Below are positions 1 to 13,681 of a stretch of 13,681 bases of DNA, one piece after another. Positions within the stretch are counted from its first letter, which is position 1, and each line of letters opens with the position of its first letter. The stretch is taken from NCBI GenBank assembly GCA_004524535.1, contig SDNY01000099.1, forward strand, positions 1 through 13,681. Reading direction: 5' to 3'. Made by a program: the position numbers and the translations under genes. The stretch comes from Promethearchaeota archaeon. Lineage in GTDB: Archaea > Asgardarchaeota > Lokiarchaeia > Sigyniarchaeales > SOKP01. The notes beneath the pieces are model-generated. The model made no database searches and was not told the DNA's origin. It worked only from the letters and a program-made list of their open reading frames with translations.

Positions 1-2112
1 CTCGAAAAGAAGGTCGAGCTTATCGACGAAGACGCCCCGACGGATATAAAGTTCAAGACCGAAGATTTAACCTATAAGGTAAAAAATAGTAAGGGACAGT
101 ACGAGCAGTATAAAGCAAAGGCGTATATTCAAGAGGGAGTCGCTAAGGAAGACTGCCGACTAATAGCGTTCCGTCTTACGGGGATTTCAGCAGATGAAGC
201 GGTTAAATTTATCTATATAGAGAAAGGATTAACTCTAAGTCAGACTAAAAAAGTTATTAGACAAGCGTATAACCTCAATCCAATACTGGATATTAACTTT
301 ATTCTTAATGGCGAGGTATTAAATAGACCACTAGGAAGCGTCTCTCCAGCCGCACTTCAAGACGTATCGTATGAAATTACGGATTCCAGCGAGATCATCT
401 TTCAATCAGCAATAACCATCATGGCTCAGCAAAGAGGGAATGCTCTTGAAGGATTAAGAGGATATACAAGAAAAAGAGCGGAAATTTTGGAGCAACACCA
501 AGGAAATATTATTTATGAAAAACTATTAGAATATTCCTTAAGTACTATAAAAGATATTAATGAAGAATATAGTATGGCTAGACAAGAAGTTGCTAGAGAA
601 AATATCGTTGAGCCAATTCAGACTAGAATAACTAAATTTATAGATGGTAAGTCAAGACATATAATAAAATTGGGTGATCCTAGTTTTGGAAAAGTATTAG
701 AGAGCCCTTCAAAATATGGATATGGGCATTTTGTTTATAGATGGGATTGGAAAGGACATAAAACATTATTTAAACAAGGAATTTATCTGAATGATCTTCC
801 ATATATTGGTTACTCTTCTAATTTTATCAATAGAATAGGTGGTGAAATTATAGATGCGTTAGAGAATAATGCAAACGGTAGGCTATCTAGATTGCATGAA
901 CAAGCAATAATAATTGCACTTCGGCAAGAAGTAGAACAAATTATTAGAAAAATCAATACGGTTGATAGAGAGGCAGATCTTGATCCATTGTTAAATGATT
1001 TAGATACGATTTATTATTGGTATCAATCTCAACGGGGAACTTGGAAAGCAAAAGAAGTTCTTGAATATATTATGTCGGATAAGGTTATTCGCAAATATTT
1101 TAATATATATATTATTGAAGCTCATGATTTTAAGTCATCTGCACTTGATAGTGAAAGAGATTTAACAAAGAATTTAAAGCATAAAATTAATGGTAAACAA
1201 GTTTCAGGCACAATATTTCCAAATGGTTTAAATATGAAAGAAGGTGGAGGCTCATCAGGATCTGAGGCATATGACGCTATTAATATGTTAGATGTCATAG
1301 CTCTTACTTCATTAGGACTCAGACTATATAGTATTGCTGATATATTAACCCAGATCACAAAAGTAAGGATTACTCCTCAGACTTTATCACATAAAATTCT
1401 TAATTCAGAATTTGGTTCATTTAAAGATCTTCAAGAATTTGCTTTAAAACCTGTTGTTGATTTATTAATTAAAGAGGCGTTTATTAATCGTCCAGAAGAT
1501 TTCTCGATTAAGATGTTGTATAAAATATTTGAATTTGGAGAGATCTACTTTCTTAATAGATTACAAGACTGGTTTGGAGTTGATTTTGATACATTGAAGA
1601 AACTTCAAAGAGCGAATATTGACTGGGATGAAGCTAAACAAATAACACAAGAAGTATTAAAAGTCTTTCGAGGAATTTCACCTTTCGATATGAGAGAATG
1701 GTTGATGGATACGAAGATCTCACAAGGTTTTATTAGGGATAAATTAGGGTTAAGTTCTACTCAATTTAAAAGAGTAATAAAGACAAAGATTTCTCCCTTT
1801 TTTACAGGGCAAGAAATGAATTCAATTGATCTTATAAAGTTCTTGCGTAGACAAGAAACTATTGATCTATTACAAGAAGGAATAGACCCTGAAATAATAC
1901 TTAGTGAACACTTTCACTTCGATATTTTTCGTATTGGAGCTGATGGTATTTTATATGTGGTTAAATCAAAAGTACGACGGGAGTTTCAAAAAATGTTTGA
2001 AGGGACTGGTTTAAATTTTGAACAAATTATTAAAAGTTATTCAGATTATCCTTATAATATTTTAAAGAGATATGGACCATATATTAAAATTAAGTATAAT
2101 GATTTAATTTAA
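1..2112 (+). CDS. 5'-truncated large multidomain protein (at least 703 aa): ubiquitin-like domain, GIY-YIG-like nuclease and HTH-like C-terminal region
   Basis: Frame 1 is open from base 1 (LEKKVELIDEDAPTD...) into the track ORF 421..2112, so ATG 421 is probably internal and the true start lies upstream of the window. Domain calls are by motif recognition only. Confidence 0.8.
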   Translation, partial: LEKKVELIDEDAPTDIKFKTEDLTYKVKNSKGQYEQYKAKAYIQEGVAKEDCRLIAFRLTGISADEAVKFIYIEKGLTLSQTKKVIRQAYNLNPILDINFILNGEVLNRPLGSVSPAALQDVSYEITDSSEIIFQSAITIMAQQRGNALEGLRGYTRKRAEILEQHQGNIIYEKLLEYSLSTIKDINEEYSMARQEVARENIVEPIQTRITKFIDGKSRHIIKLGDPSFGKVLESPSKYGYGHFVYRWDWKGHKTLFKQGIYLNDLPYIGYSSNFINRIGGEIIDALENNANGRLSRLHEQAIIIALRQEVEQIIRKINTVDREADLDPLLNDLDTIYYWYQSQRGTWKAKEVLEYIMSDKVIRKYFNIYIIEAHDFKSSALDSERDLTKNLKHKINGKQVSGTIFPNGLNMKEGGGSSGSEAYDAINMLDVIALTSLGLRLYSIADILTQITKVRITPQTLSHKILNSEFGSFKDLQEFALKPVVDLLIKEAFINRPEDFSIKMLYKIFEFGEIYFLNRLQDWFGVDFDTLKKLQRANIDWDEAKQITQEVLKVFRGISPFDMREWLMDTKISQGFIRDKLGLSSTQFKRVIKTKISPFFTGQEMNSIDLIKFLRRQETIDLLQEGIDPEIILSEHFHFDIFRIGADGILYVVKSKVRREFQKMFEGTGLNFEQIIKSYSDYPYNILKRYGPYIKIKYNDLI
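157..441 (+). other. Embedded ubiquitin-like (beta-grasp) domain
   Basis: Translation RLIAFRLTGISADEAVKFIYIEKGLTLSQTKKVIRQAYNLNPILDINFILNGEVLN...AITIMAQQRGN follows the Ub-fold pattern: two strands, a T-L-x-x-x-K helix, the F-I-L-N-G-x-x-L strand pair and a final strand. It resembles my recollection of small lokiarchaeal ubiquitin-like proteins. It ends RGN, not GG. Confidence 0.55.
715..1254 (+). other. GIY-YIG-like endonuclease domain
   Basis: GHFVYRW...PYIGYSSNFINR gives the GIY-like strand, YIG and the conserved Arg. FNIYIIE...ALDSERDL gives the candidate metal-binding Glu helix, and FPNGLNMKEGG matches the C-terminal G-x-N...GG motif. There is a long helical insertion between the two halves. 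Confidence 0.6.
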
Positions 2113-2167
2113 ATTTATTAAAATATAGGTATTAATTAATAGATTAGGTTTGTTAATTTGGTAATTA

Positions 2168-2578
2168 ATGACAGATATTAGATTGCTTGACGATGAACAT
2201 GATAAGGAATGGACAAGATTTATATTTAATGCTTGTGATTTAGAGTATCATCAATTAAGAGAAAATAAGATTACACGAGAAATTTTAGAAAAGAATTTAG
2301 ATCAAATTGTTAACAAGATTTTTAATTGTAATGATGAATACAATAATGTTGATGCTATACTTATCGGATTTCAAATTTTAGGGATTTTTATACTTAAAAC
2401 CGGTGCTTTCCTGCCTGAAATAGTAAAAAATGCGATTCTTTTCTCTACCACTTGGGAATATGATAAAATGAGAGGATGGAGTAGACTTTTAGAAGAGGAA
2501 AGGAAGGAAAATCTTGACAATTTTAGAAAAGCAATACTCAATCATAAAGTTGGAAAAATAATTAAAATCTCCTTTTAA
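2168..2578 (+). CDS. Hypothetical 136-aa helical protein; possible partner or immunity protein of the upstream nuclease-domain protein
   Basis: Clean ORF, co-oriented and 55 bp after the preceding stop. The function is inferred from position only. Confidence 0.7.
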   Translation: MTDIRLLDDEHDKEWTRFIFNACDLEYHQLRENKITREILEKNLDQIVNKIFNCNDEYNNVDAILIGFQILGIFILKTGAFLPEIVKNAILFSTTWEYDKMRGWSRLLEEERKENLDNFRKAILNHKVGKIIKISF

Positions 2579-3023
2579 AAAATTTTCTTGTTTAAATTAA
2601 ATCAATAATACCTTTGTTTTTGAAATATTAATTTCCCAAATAAATAGTATGCACAAATTATAAATCTTTTATTCTCTCAAGATTTTTCAAGTGAAGAGAT
2701 ATTGATTTTTGTCTTTTGGATTCTTTTTTTTCATTTGTTCCCAATCTTGAAAATCTTTTTCATTCTCTTTTTTTTATTTATAATCTTTTTATTTCATTCT
2801 TATTTTTACTCTGATTTTTCCTTTCAGAATATTTCAGATGATTTTTAACTTCTGATTTTCCCCCAAGAAAATTATTTGAATTCTTTTTTTTATTTAACAA
2901 TAAATTTTAATTTTGATTTTTAATACTTCTAATTATAATTATGAATCTTAAGAAATATAATTAAAAAAAAAAACAAAAAAATAAGTTCGATGAAAATATG
3001 AGACTATTAGATATAATTGTATT

Positions 3024-3031
3024 AAGGAGGT
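3024..3031 (+). promoter_or_regulatory. Shine-Dalgarno ribosome-binding site of cdhC
   Basis: AAGGAGGT ends 10 nt before ATG 3042. Confidence 0.7.
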
Positions 3032-3041
3032 TGTTTGAAAG

Positions 3042-4534
3042 ATGAGTTTTAAGTTTTTTGGAGGAACTTCACCTGTTGATGTGGGACCTGTGTACGAAGG
3101 TGAACGAATCAGAGCAAAGCAAATGTACGTAGAGCTTGGAGGACCAAAAATTCAGACAGGACATTTCGAATTGGTAAGAGTTAAGCCTGATAAAGAAATT
3201 AAGGATGGACAAGTGAAAGTAATTGGTCTTGACTTAAAGGATATGGAATTAGGTTCAACCCATCCAATTGGCATTTTAGTTGAAGTCGCAGGACCTCAGT
3301 TGGAGGAAGACCTGGAAGCAGTGTTCGAAAGAAGAATTCACGAGTTCTGCAACTTTGTTAATGGTATCATGCATCTCAACCAAAGATATACAAACTGGAT
3401 GAGACTTAGTAAAACAGCTTACGAAAAGGGGTTTAATTCATTTGAAATATTAGGAAATGTGTTAATTCGACTTTTCAAAGCTGAACTACCAATTATTGAG
3501 AAGGCACAAGTAACTATTTATACAGATCCAAAAGAGATTGAGAAACCATATGAGATGGCGTTGGCTATATATGAGGCTAGGGATGAAAGAGCTCGAACTA
3601 TTCATGATGAGGATGTCGAAATGTATTACGGATGCGTATATAGTTTCTCAGATTGAGAGTCTAGCGCTATATGCCAGTCTTTCGCTCCGACTCATGCTTG
3701 TTGCATAACACCAGATAGAACCTCTCTCTGCGGCAGTATTAATTGGTTTGATGCAAGAGCTGCCGCTAAGGTGGACCCGAAAGGACCAATAATTATGTCA
3801 TTCCGACTAATAGGTTAATCTATGAGGTTCCACCAGGAGAATGCCTTGATGCTTTTGCTGGAGAATTCTCGGGAGTTAACGATATGATAAAAAAACGTTC
3901 TCTCGGGGAAATTGAGCGTATCTATCTTTACTCTGGTATGGAATTTCCACATACATCGTGTGGGTGTTTCGAAGCTATTGATTTTTTTATCCCAGAAACA
4001 GGAGTAGGACACGGTATAATTGACCGAAGTCATGATGGTGTGGCATTAAATGGACTACCATTCAGTGCGATGGCAAATCAGACGGGTGGAGGCAAACAAA
4101 TGCCTGGTTTTAATGGAATAAGTATCCAATACATTCTTTCACCGAAATTTCAACAATATGATGGTGGAATTGAGATGGTTGTATGGATGGGAAAAACTGT
4201 AAAGGACCGAATATATGAGTTACTCCCTGAAGATTTACGAGATAAAATTGCTACTGAAGAGGATGTCAATGATTTAAATGCTTTAATTCCATGGTTACAA
4301 GAAAAAGGCCATCCAATTGTAGAGACTGAGAAGTTTAAGGCTGCAATTGCCGAGCAAGAAGAAGAGGAAGAGGAATGGGAAGAAGGAGGAGCAATGATGC
4401 CTGTAGGGACCGTTGGAATGACGATTGCTGGCGTTGGCGGTGCTGGCGGATTTAAGATCATCTTAAAGAACTGTAAGGTCAAAGCGGAATCAATTATAAT
4501 AAAAAAAATCCAATCTAGAAGAAGCAAAAAATAA
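3042..4534 (+). CDS. cdhC: Acetyl-CoA decarbonylase/synthase (CODH/ACS) beta subunit; spliced model join(3042..3639,3670..3789,3819..4534), 477 aa
   Basis: Archaeal CdhC motifs: PVDVGPVYEGERIR, ELGGPK, ERRIHEFCNFVNGIMHLNQR, HDEDVEMYYGC, CQSFAPTHACCITPDRTSLCGSINWFDARAAAKVDPKGP (between the two track ORFs), PHTSCGCFE, GGGKQMPGF, and an acidic/Gly-rich tail. The exons total 598+120+716=1434 nt, an intact frame. Confidence 0.95.
3640..3669 (+). other. Candidate BHB-type pre-mRNA intron 1 in cdhC (30 nt)
   Basis: Central 4-bp helix GCGU(3634-37)/GCGC(3664-67). Three-nt bulges AU^A(3638-40) and UA^U(3668-70). Intron hairpin UAGuUUCUCA-gau-UGAGAGuCUA (3641-3663). Exon pairs U3633-A3671 and A3632-U3672. 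Removal gives TGC GTA TTA TGC = C-V-L-C and deletes the TGA at 3654. Confidence 0.88.
3790..3818 (+). other. Candidate BHB-type (slightly relaxed) pre-mRNA intron 2 in cdhC (29 nt)
   Basis: Central 4-bp helix GACC(3784-87)/GGUU(3813-16). Bulges AA^U(3788-90) and AA^U(3817-19). Intron hairpin AUUAuGUC-auucc-GACUAAU (3792-3811), closed by an A3791/A3812 mismatch. Exon pairs G3783-C3820 and A3782-U3821. Removal gives DPKGP-IYEVPPGECLD and repairs the frameshift. Confidence 0.85.
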
Positions 4535-4535
4535 A

Positions 4536-4590
4536 TTTTTTTATTTTACTTTTTTTTACTTTTATTATTTTACTTATTTTGAAATACTTT
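4536..4590 (+). terminator. T-tract region after cdhC; probable archaeal-type terminator between convergent genes
   Basis: Multiple T runs (up to 8) directly after TAA 4534. A-runs further on would serve the opposite strand. Confidence 0.45.
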
Positions 4591-4659
4591 TATAAAAAAT
4601 AGATATAAAAAAGATGCTTTAATTCAATAGCATAATTCATTTTCTTACGAAAAAAAGTT

Positions 4660-5124
4660 TTATATATAATATCCCGTGCTATCTTCTGTGTATTTATTTT
4701 TATCGTCATCGTTCTCGTCATCGTCGTCATTTTTACCCATCATTTTTTTATAAAATGCTTTAATAATATCTTCTGGATCAGCGTTGGGATCAAGATCTTT
4801 AAAATCTCTTGGATCAATTTTGATAATCCCGCCTTGTTTAAATGGAACAAATTTACTACGCATTTCCCTCTCTATTCTTTCTTCTCGCTTAGATTTGAGA
4901 CTTAATTCTTTTTTCATTAATTCTTTTAATTCGTCAGCAACAAGTTTATCTAACTCGTCATTTTCGAGTTCTAATAACATATCATTCCCTAAAGTTTTAG
5001 TAAGTCGTTTAATGGCTTTTTCTCGTTTAATTTCTGAAATTTGAGTTATAGAGTTTAAATCTAAAAGATTTAAGATATTAAGCCAATCTAGTTTAATTGT
5101 CCAAGAAAATTCTTTTTCTGACAT
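4660..5124 (-). CDS. Hypothetical 154-aa charged protein with a coiled-coil-like middle and an acidic tail
   Basis: ORF with typical composition (K/E/D-rich, DDDDENDDDK tail), convergent with cdhC. No recognised family. Confidence 0.8.
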   Translation of the reverse strand: MSEKEFSWTIKLDWLNILNLLDLNSITQISEIKREKAIKRLTKTLGNDMLLELENDELDKLVADELKELMKKELSLKSKREERIEREMRSKFVPFKQGGIIKIDPRDFKDLDPNADPEDIIKAFYKKMMGKNDDDDENDDDKNKYTEDSTGYYI

Positions 5125-5390
5125 ATTTTAAAATCTTTTATTTTACAATTATAATAATCTATTATTTTAGTTAAATTTTTTTTTTATCCGTGAAGATAAA
5201 CTCATTTGATAAATATATATTTAATCATTTTAATCTATAATTTTAAATGGTTGGCAAAATAGGTCTTTAAATGTTATCTCTTCTATTTTAAATTCAGATT
5301 CTATATATTGATGAGATCAAAATTAATATAATTGTTTTTATATAGAGGATAATAATAATAATAAATAACCAAAAGAAATATTGAATAATT

Positions 5391-6500
5391 ATGGCAAAAA
5401 AACCATCAACTTCAAAATCAATACCTAAAAATAACCCAGTAGCTAAAAAGAAACCAGTAGCTAAAAAGAAACCAGTAGCTAAAAAGAAACCAGTAGCTAA
5501 AGAAAAAGCCGATACAAAAGTAGTAAAAAAAAGCCCTAATGAATTAGAGATATTAAAAAAATCTCCTTATCTTAAAGATTCACTAAAGAACATTAAGGAT
5601 TTAAATTTATCTGATTTGTTTGAAAGGAATCTTATTAAAGAAAAAGAATCTGATTTTGAGATCGTTTTATCTGGTCAATATGAAAAGGCTATTGAATTAA
5701 TTATGGAGGCTGATGCTTCTAATTTGTATCCAATATTAATTGGGCCACCTGGGATTGGTAAAACGACTTTATGTCGATATTACGCTCAAATTAGATCCCA
5801 TATTATCGGAAATAGCTCATTTGAGTGGATTACATTTGATGAGTCAACAAAACCCGCCCATTTAATTGGATCATTTAATCCCGCTATTACAATCCAAAAA
5901 GGTTTTTCATTTGATTCTTTTAATCCAGGACCCTTAATCCGAGCCATGTTAAGAGGAGGGGTATTCTTAGCTAACGAAGTAAATCGTGCAACAGAGTATA
6001 CACAGAATTCATTGTTAGAACCTTTAGAAGAAAAAACGGTTGCAATCCCACATATTGGGAGAATTAGAGCAACTTCAGGTTTCTTTTTCATTGGTTCTAT
6101 GAATCCTTCTGAATTGGTTGGGACACACCGATTAGGCGAGGCTCTTAAAGATAGATTTAATGTGTGGATTGAGCTTAATTATCCTGATAAAAAAACGGAA
6201 ATGAAAATAATTGAACATAATAATCCATATTACAAGATCGATGAAAGCTTGTTGGAAAAGATCTATCTTCTTATCAATCGAACACGTACTCATCATCAGG
6301 TTCAAATTCCCGCAAGTTTAAGGAGTGGAATAGCTATGGCTCGGCTAGTAGGGATTTCTCAATTGAAGAAAGAACAACCTAATCCAAATGTCATTTTGCG
6401 TGAAATTGCTAAGCATGTTTTAAATGGTTCAATTCAACCAAAACCAGGTGTAAAACCTGAAAGTATCATTAAAAATATAATAAGCCAAGTAGTTGGCTAG
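5391..6500 (+). CDS. MoxR-family AAA+ ATPase with a Lys-rich N-terminal tail
   Basis: Walker A GPPGIGKT, helix-2 insert region HLIG...FNPGPL, Walker B variant VFLANEVNR, QNSLLEPLEE, sensor I SMNP and Arg finger EALKDRF. It is adjacent to a VWA gene. Confidence 0.92.
   Translation: MAKKPSTSKSIPKNNPVAKKKPVAKKKPVAKKKPVAKEKADTKVVKKSPNELEILKKSPYLKDSLKNIKDLNLSDLFERNLIKEKESDFEIVLSGQYEKAIELIMEADASNLYPILIGPPGIGKTTLCRYYAQIRSHIIGNSSFEWITFDESTKPAHLIGSFNPAITIQKGFSFDSFNPGPLIRAMLRGGVFLANEVNRATEYTQNSLLEPLEEKTVAIPHIGRIRATSGFFFIGSMNPSELVGTHRLGEALKDRFNVWIELNYPDKKTEMKIIEHNNPYYKIDESLLEKIYLLINRTRTHHQVQIPASLRSGIAMARLVGISQLKKEQPNPNVILREIAKHVLNGSIQPKPGVKPESIIKNIISQVVG
5436..5501 (+). repeat. Perfect 18-bp coding tandem repeat CCAGTAGCTAAAAAGAAA x3.7 (PVAKKK)
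   Basis: Identical units start at 5436, 5454 and 5472, with a partial unit at 5490-5501. Confidence 0.95.
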
Positions 6501-6531
6501 AATTAGTTTAAAAGACTTTGTGATGTAAATC

Positions 6532-9102
6532 GTGATAATTTTCCCCCAAAATCCGATATGGTTTTCAATTAAGTTTATTAATAACATGAGAAAGCATGAA
6601 AAATGTGCCTATAAACCATCAATTCGGCAGGCCATTGCAATAAGCAAGTTGATTTTAGCCAGATATCTAAATCGTGGGATTTGCTTAAGTGATGATTTTG
6701 TTGAAATTGCTGTAATAACGAGCCCTTTAGAAAATCAATCGCTTGCTCGAAAGGTCGCAACAGAAATATTAAGTTATAATGAAGCTGCCAAAGTTAAAAT
6801 TCTCGATCCTATGAGTATTGATCCAAATCTCTTTAGTGAAGTTACAGGATCAGACCTAATTAGTGAATTTGATGAGGAAGAATTAAGTGAACTGGAAGAT
6901 GTCCTTGATGATTTTGAATTTTTAAGCAGTTTTTTTGATGAATTAATACAATCAGACATGGAAACAATTCTAGATTCATTAAAAAATAACTTTTTTGAGA
7001 AATATGGAGACATGTTATTTGAAGACCCATATAAAGCAGCTATCGAATTTTTATTAAAAAACTCATTTGAAAATTTCGATATTCTTAAAGATTTGAATGA
7101 TTTAATTGAAACTGCAAAAAAAATGCTTAAAGAAAAATTAAATCATTTGGACCCGGAAGATATTCAATATACTGAAAAACTTGATTTATTAGATGAGATA
7201 ATTGATGGGTCCGAAAGTTTTAGGGAGAAGCTCTCAGCTAATTTGGCAAAAAATGGTGATTTTGATAAATTTCTAAATGATTTAGAGGAAAAACTACGAG
7301 GAAACTTCTTTGAAGGATTAGGTGCTTTAAATTTTGGATTAAGCGCTGGATTATTAGATGATGAGAACCAACAAGCAGTTAAAGAGATGTTGAAAAGCAT
7401 TTTTACGCAGGTCGAAAAAAATATAAACGATTTACTTGAGGCTTCAAGGGTCATGGGGACCAAATTGGGATTGAATAAAGAGGAATTAGAACAGATAATA
7501 GAAAATAGCATGGATTATCCATTTGATGATACTTATAATGCTATAAAAAACCTTGATCAATATTTTGGAGAACAATTATGTGATGATTTCTTGAATAAAA
7601 TGGCTAATAGCATTGATGACTTAGAGATGGATGAGGATTTAATAGAAAGTTTAATATCTAATCCAACTAGAACACCATCATGGCGCCAACTTTTAAAAAA
7701 TCGTATCGATAATAAAGTTAAATCCATTTTAGAGAATAATGATTACCAAGAAACTATAAGCAGCGATTTAAAAAACTTTACTAATAAAATAATTTCTGAG
7801 AAGGGAAAGTGCTTTGATTTAGCTTGTAGATCTCAAATAAATGATTTAACTTCTGATCTAGTGAATACCTCAATTGAAAACTCTTGGAATCCTGACGATC
7901 TCACAAATTCAGTAACCCACTATAATGAACAAGGAATTCATCCAGATATTAATTCTATAAAAAATACGGGTAAAAGGCTCAATATGAGCAATGCTGAAAT
8001 AATGCGTTTAATCTCTTCAGATTATCAAGTGTTGGAAGAAATGATTGAGGAAGGCATGCAAGATTACAATGCCTATAAAAATATTTTAAACAACCTTAAT
8101 TTAAACTATCCAGAAGTGAATAATCTCGTTCAATTATCATTGAAGGGAAATGATCCATCCACCTATAATTTAGAAGCTTTAAGTGCACTATCTGAAAAAT
8201 ATTTATCAAATGTATTAAATTCAGCTAATTCTCTTGGATCTGATAAACTCAATGCTGTATTATCTTCATTAGGTGCAGGAAGTGGATTAGATCTTCTAGA
8301 ACAATGGTTTTATTCGAGACATAATCTTCCTCCACGTGTGAAAAATAAGCTAAAAGAGATTATTAAGCAGATAATGATTGATTTAGGTATTAGATCAGCT
8401 AATTCTTTAATAGGTTCAGCTAATTCTGGACCGTTGGTTGAAAATGTTGTGATCCCATATAATATTGGTGATGATTTTGATTTAATTGATTTAGAAGAGA
8501 CCGTAAGCAATCTCTTAGATGGGGGAAAAACCATCGAAATGATTGAAGAAGATGATTTTTTGGTCTCTAAAACAACTGAAGGCCTTCGATGCTTAGTAAT
8601 GGAGCTAGATATAAGCGGAAGCATGATCGGGGAAAAGTTAGCACAGATGGCTTTATGTACAACAATGTTAATCTATGCATTTAAACCTGAAGAACTTGCA
8701 CTTACCTTTTTTGAATCAAATACACATAAATTAAAAAATTTAGATGAAGAAATTGAGATTGAAAAAGTTGCTGATGAACTCCTTGATATTGAAGCTAGAG
8801 GCGGTACTTGTATTCATTCCGCATTAGAATGGGCAAATCTTCAATTCGATAAAAAAGCTAGGTCTAAATATAAGTTAAATATTTTATTTACGGATGCAGA
8901 TGTTTTTGATTTTTATGAGAGCAAGAGAGAATTGGAAAAAATGAAAGATGGCGATATCAGATTTGTCATGGTTGTACCTCAATTTCATTATTCTCCTGTC
9001 ATGGCAAAAAATATGGTAACTGAAGCGAATGGTGTATTATTAACATTAGATCAATGGAGAAATTTCCCAAAACTAATTTCTGATATTATCTCAAATCAAT
9101 AA
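6532..9102 (+). CDS. VWA-domain protein (MoxR partner) with a long acidic helical N-terminal region
   Basis: C-terminal MIDAS motif LDISGSM, GGT and ILFTD, preceded by the IDLEETV motif typical of MoxR-associated VWA proteins. It starts 31 bp after the ATPase. The GTG start is uncertain. Confidence 0.9.
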   Translation: MIIFPQNPIWFSIKFINNMRKHEKCAYKPSIRQAIAISKLILARYLNRGICLSDDFVEIAVITSPLENQSLARKVATEILSYNEAAKVKILDPMSIDPNLFSEVTGSDLISEFDEEELSELEDVLDDFEFLSSFFDELIQSDMETILDSLKNNFFEKYGDMLFEDPYKAAIEFLLKNSFENFDILKDLNDLIETAKKMLKEKLNHLDPEDIQYTEKLDLLDEIIDGSESFREKLSANLAKNGDFDKFLNDLEEKLRGNFFEGLGALNFGLSAGLLDDENQQAVKEMLKSIFTQVEKNINDLLEASRVMGTKLGLNKEELEQIIENSMDYPFDDTYNAIKNLDQYFGEQLCDDFLNKMANSIDDLEMDEDLIESLISNPTRTPSWRQLLKNRIDNKVKSILENNDYQETISSDLKNFTNKIISEKGKCFDLACRSQINDLTSDLVNTSIENSWNPDDLTNSVTHYNEQGIHPDINSIKNTGKRLNMSNAEIMRLISSDYQVLEEMIEEGMQDYNAYKNILNNLNLNYPEVNNLVQLSLKGNDPSTYNLEALSALSEKYLSNVLNSANSLGSDKLNAVLSSLGAGSGLDLLEQWFYSRHNLPPRVKNKLKEIIKQIMIDLGIRSANSLIGSANSGPLVENVVIPYNIGDDFDLIDLEETVSNLLDGGKTIEMIEEDDFLVSKTTEGLRCLVMELDISGSMIGEKLAQMALCTTMLIYAFKPEELALTFFESNTHKLKNLDEEIEIEKVADELLDIEARGGTCIHSALEWANLQFDKKARSKYKLNILFTDADVFDFYESKRELEKMKDGDIRFVMVVPQFHYSPVMAKNMVTEANGVLLTLDQWRNFPKLISDIISNQ

Positions 9103-9122
9103 CGATTGAAGTGTAAAATAGA

Positions 9123-11450
9123 TTGGAATTTAAGGAAAATATTAAAAATATAGAATTATTTAAACGTCGTGTAATAGGAGCCAGATTGAGTAGAGGCAGA
9201 AGTATTCCGTCAAAAAATATTATTGATTTTAGTGTCTCTAAATCCCCTTCTGTGAGAGTAATTGCTAATATTTTAGGCTCTGAAAATCGTAGTTATGTTA
9301 TCAACATTTTTCAGGATGAGAAAAATATCATTAATATCATTCATGATTGTCCAGATTTTCGGAAGGGAAATAGTTTCTGTAAGCATATTGTGAAGATTTT
9401 ATCCATATTAGAATATGAAATATGTGCTCATATCTGTAAAGATCTTCAAAATATTAAATTTTCATCTAATTTTAATTTAGTTAAGGAAAGTAAAATCGAT
9501 AGTTATATCTTAAAAGCGAATGAATTATTAAATGAAAAAAAAATAGAGGAAGCAATTGGATATTTAAATCAAGCGTATGAAAATTCAAAAGATCAAGTAT
9601 ATATAGAAAAAATAATTGAAATTTCATTGGAGAATGAAATTTATTACCACTTTCTAAATTATATAAAACTTAACGAGGATTTAATTAACTTTCATTCAAA
9701 ACACTTGCCAAAAGTAATAAAACTCGAAATCGGTAAGATTCAAGAATATGATTTTCAAAAACAAATTAATCTTGCTTTTAGCATACAAGATATTCTAATA
9801 AAATTACCAAAAAACAAAATAAAGGATATATTTAGCAATATCGATTTAAAAAGATTAAATTCATTTATCTTACGTTATATTCTAATATCTAAATTTAAAG
9901 ACCTCATTTATGTTGAAGATTTTTTTCAAAATGAGTTAAAGTTAAAAGATGATTTAGAGTCTTTCGCACAGAATTTTATTACAGAAGCTTTAAATGAGTC
10001 AATAATGAATATGGAAACAGAGGATATAATCAATTCTTATCAAGAGATCATTAATCGATATGATTTCAGTAACAAAAACCAATTATTAATGGAAATTGAG
10101 AGATATAGAAAAAAAATAAAGAACTTATATAAGGATGGATTAAAATTAAAACATGCCTTTCTAAGATCACTTGTTATTTCGAATTTTCAGAAAGATACAT
10201 TGAGAACCATGCCTTTTTCCTTTAGATATAGATGGCCTAATTTAGTATGGACAAGCCCTTATAAAAGTGAAAGTCAGCTCCATTATTTTATTTTAGAAAA
10301 ATGTGGATTTGAAAGACATCATTTGGAATATGTAAATAAGAAATTTTTCATAGAAAACTTTCCTATTTTTAGTGGTATATTTGGAGCCAAGAATATTTTT
10401 CCGAAGGAGGTTAAAGATTTTTGGAGCGTAAATGATCCTAAAATTGAAAATTCTATTTTTGATTCGCACCATCTTGAAGTAGATTTTGACATTATTCATA
10501 AATCTTTGAATGATTACATGTTAATCGAATGGGATTTGGTACAAGCTCCTATTTTAGGGAGTTATATTTATCAATTTGATCAAGGTTTTATTATTCCTGA
10601 TTTGACTCATCCATTAACCTATAATATACAACCATTTGATCTATATATTTGTCTTAAAAAACCCATTAATATCAAGCAGAATAACACCAAGATTATTAGA
10701 CCAATAAGAAAGATCAATGTTAAGACAGCTATAGAATTTGTACATAATGGAATTGAGTTTATTACTACTTATTTGCCATTTCAAGTAATAATTGAGTTGA
10801 AAAATAAAAAGATTGATGAAATTGACGCTTGGAAGCACATTAATCAGCAAATGGATCAATTATTTTCTCCTAAGAAGAATAAATTTAAACAATACATGAG
10901 TGATTTTATTCAAACTCAAATAAATAAAGATTTTAATGAATTTTATTTGAAGATAGTCGACAAGGAAAAAAATAGACAGAAAGTTTTGGATCTTATTGGT
11001 TTTAAGCATTATTTTGAGATATTTAACAAAAGAATAGCTTTACAAAAGTTTAAGATTGGAAATCTAAAAAGAAATTCACTTCAAGAGTTAAAGGTTGATT
11101 TAAAGAATTTTGTGGTTGAAGAAATAGTAAAAATAGTGAAACAAAAAAGATTTAATCAAATTAATATTAAAAAATTAAAGGAATTTCCAGCTTTCAAAAA
11201 TCTTTCGCTTAAAATAATTCAATTGCTAAAAGATGAATTAGAGGAATGTAAGATTTATAAAATTGAAGCATCTAAATACGATATAACTGAATTACTTGAA
11301 AATTATTACGGGAAGAAAATTGTCGAAGGGTCCGAAATAACAATTTTGAATGATGAAAAAATGTCTTTAGTTTCAACTGAAGATCTGAAAAAATTACTCT
11401 CAAACTTTTCATTTTTAAAAATTGACAATCCAGAAATAACACATAGATAA
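9123..11450 (+). CDS. 775-aa protein with an N-terminal SWIM-type zinc finger and a TPR-like helical hairpin
   Basis: GSENRSYVINI...HDCPDF...FCKHIVKIL is a SWIM pattern with His in place of the first Cys. KANELLNEKKIEEAIGYLNQAYE is TPR-like. The TTG start lies 20 bp after the VWA stop. Confidence 0.8.
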   Translation: MEFKENIKNIELFKRRVIGARLSRGRSIPSKNIIDFSVSKSPSVRVIANILGSENRSYVINIFQDEKNIINIIHDCPDFRKGNSFCKHIVKILSILEYEICAHICKDLQNIKFSSNFNLVKESKIDSYILKANELLNEKKIEEAIGYLNQAYENSKDQVYIEKIIEISLENEIYYHFLNYIKLNEDLINFHSKHLPKVIKLEIGKIQEYDFQKQINLAFSIQDILIKLPKNKIKDIFSNIDLKRLNSFILRYILISKFKDLIYVEDFFQNELKLKDDLESFAQNFITEALNESIMNMETEDIINSYQEIINRYDFSNKNQLLMEIERYRKKIKNLYKDGLKLKHAFLRSLVISNFQKDTLRTMPFSFRYRWPNLVWTSPYKSESQLHYFILEKCGFERHHLEYVNKKFFIENFPIFSGIFGAKNIFPKEVKDFWSVNDPKIENSIFDSHHLEVDFDIIHKSLNDYMLIEWDLVQAPILGSYIYQFDQGFIIPDLTHPLTYNIQPFDLYICLKKPINIKQNNTKIIRPIRKINVKTAIEFVHNGIEFITTYLPFQVIIELKNKKIDEIDAWKHINQQMDQLFSPKKNKFKQYMSDFIQTQINKDFNEFYLKIVDKEKNRQKVLDLIGFKHYFEIFNKRIALQKFKIGNLKRNSLQELKVDLKNFVVEEIVKIVKQKRFNQINIKKLKEFPAFKNLSLKIIQLLKDELEECKIYKIEASKYDITELLENYYGKKIVEGSEITILNDEKMSLVSTEDLKKLLSNFSFLKIDNPEITHR

Positions 11451-11571
11451 ATTAAATTTTCATAAAGTGGTTCAAGTTTAATATTTTTAGCTTTTATTGT
11501 GACAGATATGTTTAAATATAGTTTAGAAGATCTTATAATCAAGAAAAAATGTATGCAAATGGTGAAATACA

Positions 11572-12843
11572 GTGGATAGACCAATAGAAAATCGAGAATT
11601 ATTAAATTATTTGTTCCAATCACTTTCAGTAGGTGATCTAAAGCAATATTGTAAAGAATTAAGTTTAAAGGGATATTCTAAATTAAATAAAGACGCATTA
11701 GTTGATTTTATATTGGATTCAATGTCGGAAGAAGAACTAGAAAATTTACTCCAAGAAAAAGAATTATCAATTATCTCAAAAAGTATAGATGTGGCTTTGA
11801 ATAAAATTAATAAATTGGATCGCGAGAGCATTAGAGAGATTAGGATTGCAAACGAAGAAGAACATGAAGTAGAAATTGATTTTGTTGGCCCAAGATGGGA
11901 GTCAAGCTCTTTTATTTCAATATCCCCAGAAAATATTGATGAACCTGAGAGGGATTGCGATTGTAGAGTTGGATCAAAAATGGGATTTTGTAATCATTTT
12001 TGGATTGGATTTATTTTCTCTTTAAAAAAGGGATATTTTGAACTTAAGGACTGGAAACTTACACAGCTACCAGAAAATTTTAAGGAAAATATTAAAAATA
12101 TTGAAATTGAAGAAATTAATGGAAGATTTAATCTAATTAACAAGGAACCTGATAATCCTTTACTTACGCTTTTGGATAAAAAAGTATCCGTTCATGAGGG
12201 AGTAATTCAAACTATTAACAAAAGAACATCTGATTTTCAAGGAAATATTACCGTTTATTACATGACAACATTAATTAATGTTAAAATTGGACCATTTGTT
12301 AAGAAGAAGGATGATTTAAAAGAAGAAAATATCATTTCTATTGATGAGATGAAATTAAGAATTAGTGAAAAAGCATATAATGCAGTTAATCCTAAGAAAG
12401 GAGACAATCTAAGCTGTAATGGGACTTTAGTTAAAGATAATTTTATTGGCATCATGATGAAAAGGGTATCTGGAATAAATACAGGTAAGGGTGATACTGA
12501 GCAAAATCCAGTTTTATACTATTTAGGTGAGAGAATTACTGTTTATGAATCAGAGATTACTGAAATGGAAAAAAAAGAGTATAAATTCCGTGGTGACTAT
12601 GATACTGTATATTATCTAACTTCTTTGAAAGATGTAAGATTTGGCCCTCAATTAAAGAAGAAAAGTGAGTATGATGAGAATAAAATTGAAAATATTAATG
12701 AATTAAAGATGAGGATCAGCGAAAATATATATGATAAGCTAGGTCCTAAAATAGGAGATAAAATATCTTGCAACGGAACAGTAGATAATGATAGTTTTTT
12801 CGGCACTATATTAAAAAGAGTAGCAAAATTCACAAAGTTATAA
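11572..12843 (+). CDS. 423-aa protein: HeH (Rho-N/SAP-like) domain, SWIM zinc finger and two tandem OB-fold-like domains
   Basis: LSVGDLKQYCKELSLKGYSKLNKDALVDFI is a Rho-N/HeH pattern. DCDC-x8-CNH is a SWIM finger. The C-terminal beta-rich domain is duplicated. Confidence 0.8.
   Translation: MDRPIENRELLNYLFQSLSVGDLKQYCKELSLKGYSKLNKDALVDFILDSMSEEELENLLQEKELSIISKSIDVALNKINKLDRESIREIRIANEEEHEVEIDFVGPRWESSSFISISPENIDEPERDCDCRVGSKMGFCNHFWIGFIFSLKKGYFELKDWKLTQLPENFKENIKNIEIEEINGRFNLINKEPDNPLLTLLDKKVSVHEGVIQTINKRTSDFQGNITVYYMTTLINVKIGPFVKKKDDLKEENIISIDEMKLRISEKAYNAVNPKKGDNLSCNGTLVKDNFIGIMMKRVSGINTGKGDTEQNPVLYYLGERITVYESEITEMEKKEYKFRGDYDTVYYLTSLKDVRFGPQLKKKSEYDENKIENINELKMRISENIYDKLGPKIGDKISCNGTVDNDSFFGTILKRVAKFTKL
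12154..12840 (+). repeat. Diverged internal domain duplication (about 110 aa x2; units start at 12154 and 12505)
   Basis: TVYYMTTLINVKIGP..KKK..EMKLRISEKAY..PKKGDNLSCNGT..D.FIG..MKRV aligns with TVYYLTSLKDVRFGP..KKK..ELKMRISENIY..PKIGDKISCNGT..D.FFG..LKRV. Confidence 0.9.
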
Positions 12844-12942
12844 GATATAACAAGTTCATTTAATCTTTTTTTTCTCACCTAAAGATTGAGAAAACCAAAT
12901 TTGTTTAAATTTTTTTAAATATCTTAAAATCTTATGATTACC

Positions 12943-13681
12943 ATGGCTCGAACATATATAATGGCAAGACATTCTACAGGTAATATGATATATACTTATG
13001 AATTTATTGTTGTTATTATTATTCTTATTATTCTAATACTTTTTTGGAAGTTAAGAGATGATAGAAATTCGCTTTTCGTTTATATTATTACAGGTGTTGT
13101 AGAAACAATCGTTGAATTACTAGCGGCCTTCTCTGGAATTCGAACAATTGAAGAGACATATTTATTTGGAGTATTTTATGTTGGATTTCCCTTATTACAA
13201 GTAATTATGGGATTTTTTGAAGGAGGAGTTATATGTATAATAGCATATCACCTTATACAGGGAATAATGCTAAAAAATAAACTTTCTTTAAAATTTTCAC
13301 TCAGTTATCTCATAGTTACAACTGTTATAATGATGTTTTCAAGAGTGAGCGTGTTTTTCAATGTATCACAAGATTCTAATAGCATTACAAGAAGAGAAAT
13401 CTTTTCATTAGGCTCAATTATACTTCTTATTAGTTGTTTTGTAATTTCTTTTAGTTATTTCTTTATAAATAAAAGAATTGATAAAAGGGATCGAATAAGT
13501 TTTTTACTATGGTATTTATTCATTATGGTTGCATATTTTCCAGTGTTTCTAATCTCTCATATTACAATGACTCGTTTTATTGAAATTGAGCAAAATGGAA
13601 CATATAAAGTAGCCCCTTTATTAGATCAAATTCTTGTCTTATATATCTATGGTTTAGGAATAGAAGCAGGAAGCTTATTTC
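12943..13681 (+). CDS. 3'-truncated multi-pass membrane protein, hypothetical (not in the ORF track)
   Basis: The frame is open from ATG 12943 (alternative 12934) to the window end: MARTYIMARHSTGNMIYTYEFIVVIIILIILILFWK..., with about six or seven hydrophobic segments. Confidence 0.85.
   Translation, partial: MARTYIMARHSTGNMIYTYEFIVVIIILIILILFWKLRDDRNSLFVYIITGVVETIVELLAAFSGIRTIEETYLFGVFYVGFPLLQVIMGFFEGGVICIIAYHLIQGIMLKNKLSLKFSLSYLIVTTVIMMFSRVSVFFNVSQDSNSITRREIFSLGSIILLISCFVISFSYFFINKRIDKRDRISFLLWYLFIMVAYFPVFLISHITMTRFIEIEQNGTYKVAPLLDQILVLYIYGLGIEAGSLF

Follow-up and report, generated by a model that had tools for sequence, protein, structure and literature searches.

How a gene whose reading frame stops between two cysteines of its own metal-cluster motif can give rise to an active enzyme is the question raised by cdhC, the gene for the β subunit of acetyl-CoA synthase (ACS) in the archaeal ACS/carbon monoxide dehydrogenase (CODH) complex, in a Promethearchaeota archaeon of the Lokiarchaeia (order Sigyniarchaeales). 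The gene lies in the window, by which we mean the whole stretch of 13,681 nucleotides (nt) that was analysed (contig SDNY01000099.1, positions 1–13,681 of the forward strand); this is contig C32 of the genome GCA_004524535.1 (hereafter G000), a metagenome-assembled genome (MAG) of 3.66 Mb in 198 contigs with 30.4% GC, 99% completeness and 4.4% contamination. It occupies positions 3042–4534 of the plus strand and is split into three open pieces, which the list of open reading frames (ORFs) gives as 3042–3653, 3657–3815 and 3770–4531. Judging from the sequence, we consider it very probable that positions 3640–3669 of this single cdhC gene are a mini-intron of the bulge–helix–bulge (BHB) type that is spliced out of the pre-mRNA by EndA, the tRNA-splicing endonuclease, and RtcB.

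The first piece matches the Pfam family CdhC (PF03598, E 4.6e-61), and the second and third match ACS_CODH_B_C (PF19436) over profile positions 22–64 and 67–242, respectively. An orthologue search found cdhC to be single-copy in G000, and the frame is uninterrupted (393–499 aa) in 27 relatives. In alignments with ACS chain 1oao_C of the PDB, residues 11–200 of exon 1 align with 321–508, and exon 2 aligns with 506–547. The gene as we read it is made up as follows.

3042–3639, plus strand: exon 1, which begins with the ATG at 3042, ends on the first base of a Leu codon and carries the Cys that aligns with position 506
3640–3669, plus strand: predicted intron 1, a 30-nt BHB mini-intron that corresponds to a 30-nt gap in 24/24 relatives and is the only register that gives C-V-L-C
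3670–3789, plus strand: exon 2, which carries the Cys that aligns with position 509 as well as the Cys at +9 and +19 (Pfam profile 22–64)
3790–3818, plus strand: predicted intron 2, a 29-nt frame-shifting BHB mini-intron that corresponds to a 29-nt gap in 24/24 relatives
3819–4534, plus strand: exon 3, with its stop codon at 4532–4534, lying in the ORF 3770–4534 (ACS_CODH_B_C profile 67–242)

Upstream of cdhC, a 440-nt spacer (2590–3030) is very AT-rich and rich in T-tracts, is devoid of ORFs, and presumably serves as a promoter or leader.

An insert within the A-cluster motif

The frame of exon 1 runs straight into the insert (GGA TGC GTA TAT AGT TTC TCA GAT TGA, with the TGA at 3654–3656 in frame); in the protein, the first piece ends with Y-Y-G-C-V followed by Y-S-F-S-D and the stop, and the frame resumes with A-I-C-Q-S-F-A-P-T-H (GCT ATA TGC CAG TCT TTC). 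The first-pass annotation of this DNA, which was made from the sequence alone, had described an insert that splits the CxxC of the A-cluster motif, is a multiple of three in length and contains a TGA at 3654. The sequence bears this description out, and DNA alignment reveals exact gaps of 30 nt at intron 1 and 29 nt at intron 2 in 24 of 24 relatives. The same annotation had equated the two flanking Cys with Cys506 and Cys509 of Moorella ACS, and this assignment holds in alignments with both 1oao_C and 1mjg_M, in which the flanking Cys fall at chain positions 506 (before the insert) and 509 (behind it); the +9/+19 spacing to the next two Cys is present in exon 2. These four Cys (506, 509, +9 and +19) we take to be the [4Fe-4S] ligands of the ACS A-cluster. 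With the intron placed between two Cys of this motif, the unspliced product is certainly inactive. Translation of the unspliced RNA would end at the TGA after 204 residues, and ACS activity therefore depends on splicing.

An independent 352-nt Logan contig (run X1, depth 36.6) reproduces positions 3401–3752 with 0 differences and 0 gaps, and intron 1 is therefore not an artefact of the assembler that produced the MAG. In a screen for 10-aa inserts among 108 cdhC loci the intron-1 site was occupied only in the window, and a search of 160 genomes of the class with a pattern for the site (28–40 extra bases) returned one genome, G000 itself, although this pattern depends on conserved flanks and divergent genes may escape it.

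Predicted geometry and splicing of the two introns

The BHB motif consists of a 4-bp helix in which each strand carries a 3-nt bulge on its 3′ side, and the cut falls after the second base of the bulge. We compared this rule with the logic of tRNA numbering; it agrees with 13 of the 14 inserts of G000 described below. Applied to intron 1, it predicts the following elements.

3634–3637, plus strand: 5′ strand of the central helix (GCGU, in exon 1), pairing with 3664–3667 at 4/4 positions
3638–3640, plus strand: 5′ bulge (AUA), with the predicted cut between 3639 and 3640
3641–3663, plus strand: inner hairpin h′, in which 3641–3650 pairs with 3654–3663 around a loop at 3651–3653, with one U·U mismatch
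3664–3667, plus strand: 3′ strand of the central helix (GCGC, at the 3′ end of the intron), paired at 4/4 positions in the window and in the homologous contig L264 described below
3668–3670, plus strand: 3′ bulge (UAU), with the predicted cut between 3669 and 3670

In the pre-mRNA, the exonic GCGU and the intronic GCGC would thus form the 4-bp central helix, AUA and UAU would bulge from opposite strands, and the remainder of the intron would fold into the inner hairpin. A heteromeric tRNA-splicing endonuclease, assembled from two EndA paralogues, would cut at 3639/3640 and 3669/3670, and RtcB would ligate the exons into a message that reads C-V-L-C-Q-S-F, with the CxxC of the A-cluster restored; intron 2 would be excised likewise. 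Cleavage, ligation and the enzymes responsible are what we infer; the insert, its geometry and conservation, its counterparts in other genes and the presence of genes for the enzymes are observed.

At the C-V-L-C register, intron 1 pairs at 4/4 positions of the central helix, 2/3 of the outer helix and 5/6 of the inner helix, giving a score of 15 and rank 1 of 25 registers; over the full inner helix, 9 of 10 positions are paired. Among 300,000 random genome positions, scores of at least 14 have a frequency of 0.003, and the BHB at intron 1 exceeds chance. A junction at 3639/3670 yielding CVLC had been predicted from the BHB at the outset. Only one 30-nt excision restores the C-V-L-C found in all 24 aligned relatives, and it is the one made by the predicted cuts and ranked first by the BHB score, which together argue for this junction. 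In intron 2 the central helix is formed by GACC and GGUU (3784–3787 with 3813–3816; 4/4 paired), with bulges AAU at 3788–3790 and AAU at 3817–3819; the score is 14, and the register again ranks first of 25.

The genome encodes the presumed machinery. G000 contains two paralogues with the EndA catalytic domain (PF01974; open frames of 203 and 202 aa), in the regions C100:31106–31336 and C84:30615–30863, and an RtcB (E 1.5e-168). Asgard EndA is reported to be of the (αβ)2 type with an L1 loop, which is tied to a broad substrate range (PMC5829648). ARAGORN detected 12 tRNA genes in G000 (9 without its intron option) despite the 99% completeness, which suggests that most tRNA genes of this genome are interrupted in ways that lie beyond the program's model. 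This low count fits the heavy interruption of Asgard tRNA genes by BHB introns that is described in a preprint (10.64898/2026.10.13.758758).

Related inserts in cdhC genes and across two genomes

When metagenome contigs were scanned with the intron-1 site pattern, a single one was returned, L264, whose cdhC gene carries an insert at the same site as intron 1 of the window, with 11 of 30 bases different.

896–925, minus strand: intron 1 of the L264 cdhC gene, 30 nt

The L264 gene has 80% protein identity to that of the window and 95% to that of L036, which is free of inserts, and the two insert-bearing genes are therefore not sisters. The BHB geometry of its intron 1 ranks first, the joined frame reads C-V-L-C, and a 29-nt BHB insert occupies its intron-2 site as well. 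That homologous inserts should keep the BHB pairing had been set beforehand as a test, and in L264 the central helix pairs at 4/4 positions and compensatory pairs are found in the inner helix. In the ungapped alignment of the two inserts, both keep the central helix fully paired, one G-C having become G-U; the inner helix, in which 85% of cells are paired, shows two double changes (A-U/G-C and G-C/A-U); and of all cells in the 17 pairs modelled, 88% are paired, versus 24–53% when the 3′ partners are slid. The compensatory changes seen in these two sequences lend modest support to the predicted structure. Intron 1 of L264 contains no in-frame stop, and if it were left in the message the two Cys would be separated by 10 additional residues; these inserts therefore need not contain a stop codon.

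Across the cdhC set (108 loci; 94 distinct proteins including L264) we found nine inserts at 4 sites in 7 of the 94 distinct genes. Stop-bearing, in-frame inserts of 30 nt are present in five further genes, located as follows.

L040 and L085: insert between A-M-A-N and Q-T-G-G
L060 and L080: insert between G-G-G and K-Q-M-P
L107: insert at the intron-2 site, 30 nt

In each of these five the central helix is paired at 3–4 of 4 positions. The minimum-free-energy (MFE) fold of the L080 insert is itself a helix, a 3-nt bulge and a hairpin with the correct cut, and between L060 and L080 one C-G pair of the central helix is replaced by U-A, its exon side being a synonymous third position. A three-way MAFFT alignment of the intron-2 inserts (A2) puts the inner helices out of register, and geometry was scored for each sequence separately. 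No stop-bearing 10-aa inserts outside cdhC were found in the flanks of the 108 cdhC loci, which are short.

We also searched G000 with the ORFs from 2.79 Mb (60%) of G001, a genome of the same genus, and detected 14 inserts of 29–33 nt in 10 genes. Two are those of cdhC; the other 12 are listed here by contig, with coordinates on that contig.

C17:309–338 and 449–479, minus strand: RNA polymerase A′ (rpoA′), two inserts
C185:15915–15943, plus strand: leucyl-tRNA synthetase (LeuRS), one insert
C188:175–204, plus strand: ribosomal protein uL11, one insert
C100:12004–12033, minus strand: CODH α-type Prismane protein (cdhA), one insert
C26:5940–5968 and 5413–5443, minus strand: MoxR-type AAA ATPase, two inserts
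C103:13984–14016, minus strand: SBF-family transporter, one insert
C104:6214–6243 and 6346–6375, plus strand: Ras/Arf-like GTPase, two inserts
C165:60444–60473, minus strand: ChsH2-domain protein, one insert
C181:1766–1795, minus strand: UQ_con (E2-like) protein, one insert

At the register that restores the protein, the BHB ranks first of 25 in 13 of the 14 inserts and the central helix is paired at 4/4 positions in 12 of the 14; a canonical BHB is present at that register in 11 of the 12 inserts outside cdhC. In an earlier set of 15 inserts, 54 of 60 central-helix positions were paired, versus 12–29 of 60 in controls slid by 1–3 bases. The bulges are A/U-rich, with AAA, AAU, AUA and ACA predominating, and Pfam profiles continue over the inserts (Rpb1_1, 2–34/38–73/74–153; AAA_3, 1–88/89–131; SBF, 2–81/85–190). 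The insert listing shows GC-rich exon tetramers, followed by A-rich bases, at the central helices; at 30% GC such tetramers may occur mainly at fixed Gly, Ala, Pro and Cys codons, which may account for the presence of the inserts in conserved motifs.

One orthologue each was found for rpoA′, leuS, uL11 and cdhC, and these genes are therefore not dead copies. Because like inserts interrupt the single-copy genes for RNA polymerase A′, LeuRS and uL11, removal at the level of RNA is necessary, and the inserts must be gone by the time the message is decoded or be taken out during decoding; the BHB evidence favours cutting of the RNA over hopping of the ribosome. The earlier proposal that splicing is obligatory for function thus appears well founded in the gene content, cdhC itself being single-copy and single-copy rpoA′, LeuRS and uL11 genes bearing like inserts. 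Intron 1 of cdhC is a member of a population of 29–33-nt mini-introns scattered over the protein genes of this lineage. With 14 detected from 60% of the comparator, there are probably about two dozen such mini-introns per genome, with hosts that include RNA polymerase, LeuRS, a ribosomal protein and both catalytic subunits of ACS/CODH. Most likely the mini-intron is a selfish or neutral element that is tolerated by an endonuclease of broad specificity, rather than a dedicated regulator.

Two other kinds of alignment break turned up in G000. A 59-nt "insert" at C113:24829 was rejected as a gene boundary or a spurious alignment. Four orthologue alignments contain a 1-nt change of frame (−1 or +1) with no insert, at C114:27881, C3:10762, C173:16313 and C40:13050 (all on the plus strand); possible causes are frameshifts, errors of sequencing or antisense shadows.

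The reverse search showed that G001 has ~30-nt inserts of its own at other sites, none of them in common with G000. They lie on C6 near 1128444, 188697, 188847, 165897, 396831 and 862902, and on C9 near 6926 and 269071; examples include an insert before the W-C-G-P-C of a thioredoxin-like gene, one in a CODH gene and one in an OYE-like gene. Both cdhC intron sites are occupied in the window and in L264, each of which has closer relatives that are free of inserts. That the same cdhC sites are used in genes that are not sisters, and that genomes of one genus differ in their sets of inserts, suggests that the mini-introns are gained and lost quickly. Recombination with co-conversion of the flanking exon may be the route by which they spread. 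Over the 117 nt of exon that separate the introns, the nucleotide sequence of the window is nearest to that of L107 (87%, rank 1), with L264 at 82% (tied rank 3); in the flanks of that exon L107 and L264 hold ranks 28–69. This similarity hints at a co-conversion trace of intron transfer, in a stretch (117 nt) that is too short to carry weight.

Alternative explanations and relation to known elements

Several of our results weigh against the proposal that the inserts are spliced BHB introns. The first-pass annotation had called for a computational fold of 3625–3680, and the plain MFE structure is a different, extended hairpin rather than the BHB (z-scores −0.65 to −1.80); the BHB-constrained fold has −11.2 kcal/mol, 4.5 above the MFE of −15.7 kcal/mol. 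Considered by itself, the fold does not convince; the test of geometry tells more. The outer helix of intron 1 is weak (U-A, A-U, G·G, G-C), and one of its pairs is lost in L264; the pattern of outer and inner helices corresponds to a relaxed, HBh′-like form. In the shuffle control for the comparison of the window with L264, 129 of 500 shuffles of the two sequences reached the observed pairing, making this control uninformative. The first insert of rpoA′ falls outside the canonical geometry (central helix 3/4, rank 6). Among 11 candidates in G001, 5 rank first at the register of best alignment, 3 others fit with one junction residue differing, and g1-c181 does not fit; g1-mvhD and g1-c123 probably mark gene boundaries or spurious hits and were discarded. 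De novo scans for BHB sites that join ORFs gave no excess over shifted, slid and mirror controls (1609 versus 1625/1638/1564; 5237 versus 5207–5350; 2985 versus 2899–3003), and these introns are therefore not recognisable from the BHB motif by itself. The mirror-image geometry entered only into such genome-wide scans, which were uninformative. Finally, no RNA run carrying 3042–4534 was found.

Two runs labelled as metatranscriptomic, X20 and X21, contain only ~90%-alike relatives that lack the inserts. We also observed that GCGUAU of exon 1 can pair with AUAUGC of exon 2 (3634–3641 with 3667–3674), forming an MFE helix that rivals the BHB; the same pairing is possible in L264.

What, other than splicing by EndA and RtcB, could account for the interrupted frame? 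A ribosome might hop over the insert and leave the RNA uncut, as in the programmed translational bypassing of phage T4 gene 60 and of the byps elements of yeast mitochondria. The inserts are uniformly short (29–33 nt) and form hairpins, many contain an early stop (uL11, the first insert of C104, L085), and that of L040 has AAU at both ends, all of which would suit bypassing. However, intron 1 offers no take-off codon that matches a landing before L-C-Q, the triplet there being GCU as against GUA or UGC, and bypassing foresees neither a 4-bp helix with two 3-nt bulges at the protein-restoring register, which is present in 13 of 14 inserts of G000, nor compensatory changes in that helix; we regard it as very unlikely. 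That cdhC is simply broken, either as a decaying pseudogene or through errors of assembly, might be supposed from the fact that a single gene is disrupted twice, by a stop and by a frameshift, and belongs to a MAG of 198 contigs with 4.4% contamination. Such an explanation is extremely unlikely in the face of the Logan contig of depth 36.6 that is identical to 3401–3752, the high conservation of the cdhC exons with their full Pfam matches, the occurrence of like inserts in MAGs from separate assemblies, the similar interruption of the single-copy genes for RNA polymerase A′, LeuRS and uL11 in a genome that is 99% complete, and the non-random structure of the inserts (54/60 central pairs versus 12–29/60 when slid).

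It is also improbable, if somewhat less so, that the inserts are removed by machinery other than EndA and RtcB or act as a riboswitch-like gate that is specific to carbon fixation. An MFE fold that rivals the BHB makes conditional cleavage possible in principle, and inserts are present in both cdhC and cdhA. Against this, the inserts have the geometry of an EndA substrate, those listed share neither a ligand-binding motif nor a conserved sequence motif, and the hosts also include rpoA′, leuS, uL11, a MoxR ATPase, a transporter, a small GTPase and an E2-like protein, showing no specificity for carbon fixation. The suggestion that intron 1 acts as a post-transcriptional switch for carbon fixation finds no support, given the presence of like inserts in housekeeping genes, the hosts forming a cross-section of the proteome. 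Two further classes were rejected. Recoding of the stop codon (selenocysteine or readthrough at the TGA at 3654) would give C-x12-C, versus CxxC in all relatives, and in sister inserts the stop is TAA or TAG, or the frame is shifted; a group I or group II intron, or one encoding a homing endonuclease, would find no room for a ribozyme core or an enzyme in 30 nt.

Pre-mRNA introns of the BHB type have reportedly been described in cbf5 of Aeropyrum and Sulfolobus (by Watanabe in 2002 and Yoshinari in 2006). The splicing of mini-introns that we propose for cdhC resembles that of the cbf5 introns, which combine a BHB-like fold in a protein gene with the tRNA-splicing endonuclease, a heteromeric EndA and patchy gain and loss (Yokobori 2009, PMC2738675); the same source states that archaeal pre-mRNA splicing is unconfirmed for any gene except cbf5 (PMC2738675). 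The cbf5 introns are crenarchaeal, whereas those described here are found in an Asgard archaeon, interrupt the metabolic gene cdhC, are uniform at ~30 nt and number at least 14 in 10 genes, and their splicing is predicted. Archaeal pre-tRNA introns, among them the many non-canonical ones of Asgard tRNA genes, share the 4-bp helix, the two 3-nt bulges, the presumed enzymes, repeated lineage-specific gains and a similar length (8–28 nt plus longer ones in G000, according to ARAGORN). In the present case, however, the substrate is an mRNA, the junction must keep the frame, and translation of the unspliced form yields a truncated protein. A term search of the preprint on Asgard tRNA (10.64898/2026.10.13.758758) found "mRNA" 0 times, and full-text searches, which reached few subscription journals and no supplements, turned up no account of BHB introns in the protein genes of Asgard archaea.

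Bypass elements (T4 gene 60 and the mitochondrial byps of Magnusiomyces) are likewise inserts of tens of nucleotides in conserved genes, with hairpins and early stops, that are absent from relatives; they differ in requiring matching take-off and landing codons and no cutting of RNA, whereas in the inserts considered here the BHB geometry and compensatory changes are present and matching codons are mostly missing. Homing group I and II introns and inteins also occupy the most conserved motif of a gene and recur at the same sites in lineages that are not sisters. Unlike these elements, intron 1 has, at 30 nt, no ribozyme core and no ORF for an endonuclease or a reverse transcriptase, and the cdhC introns are not translated in frame (a stop in intron 1, a frameshift in intron 2). 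The likeness to homing-type elements that the first-pass annotation had drawn therefore stands only in part: an encoded endonuclease is lacking at this length, and the recurrence of the same two sites in non-sister lineages, together with an unusually similar exon 2, speaks in its favour. The mechanism is that of cbf5 and tRNA introns; what is new is the lineage, the genes, the uniform mini size and the many-gene scale.

A mechanism that is confirmed only for crenarchaeal cbf5 (PMC2738675) appears to serve many Asgard genes, including indispensable ones. If mini-introns do interrupt many genes in this way, mRNA splicing would be obligatory for viability, and translation would have to be kept off unspliced transcripts or be tolerant of them. 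Insert-bearing genes are likely to be annotated as fragments or pseudogenes, and reconstructions of the Wood–Ljungdahl pathway could err as a result. With their fast gain and loss and their recurrent sites, the mini-introns provide a system for the study of how BHB introns spread, and, in the lineage nearest the eukaryotes, they bear on the old question of how a prokaryote whose transcription and translation are coupled copes with introns in its mRNA.

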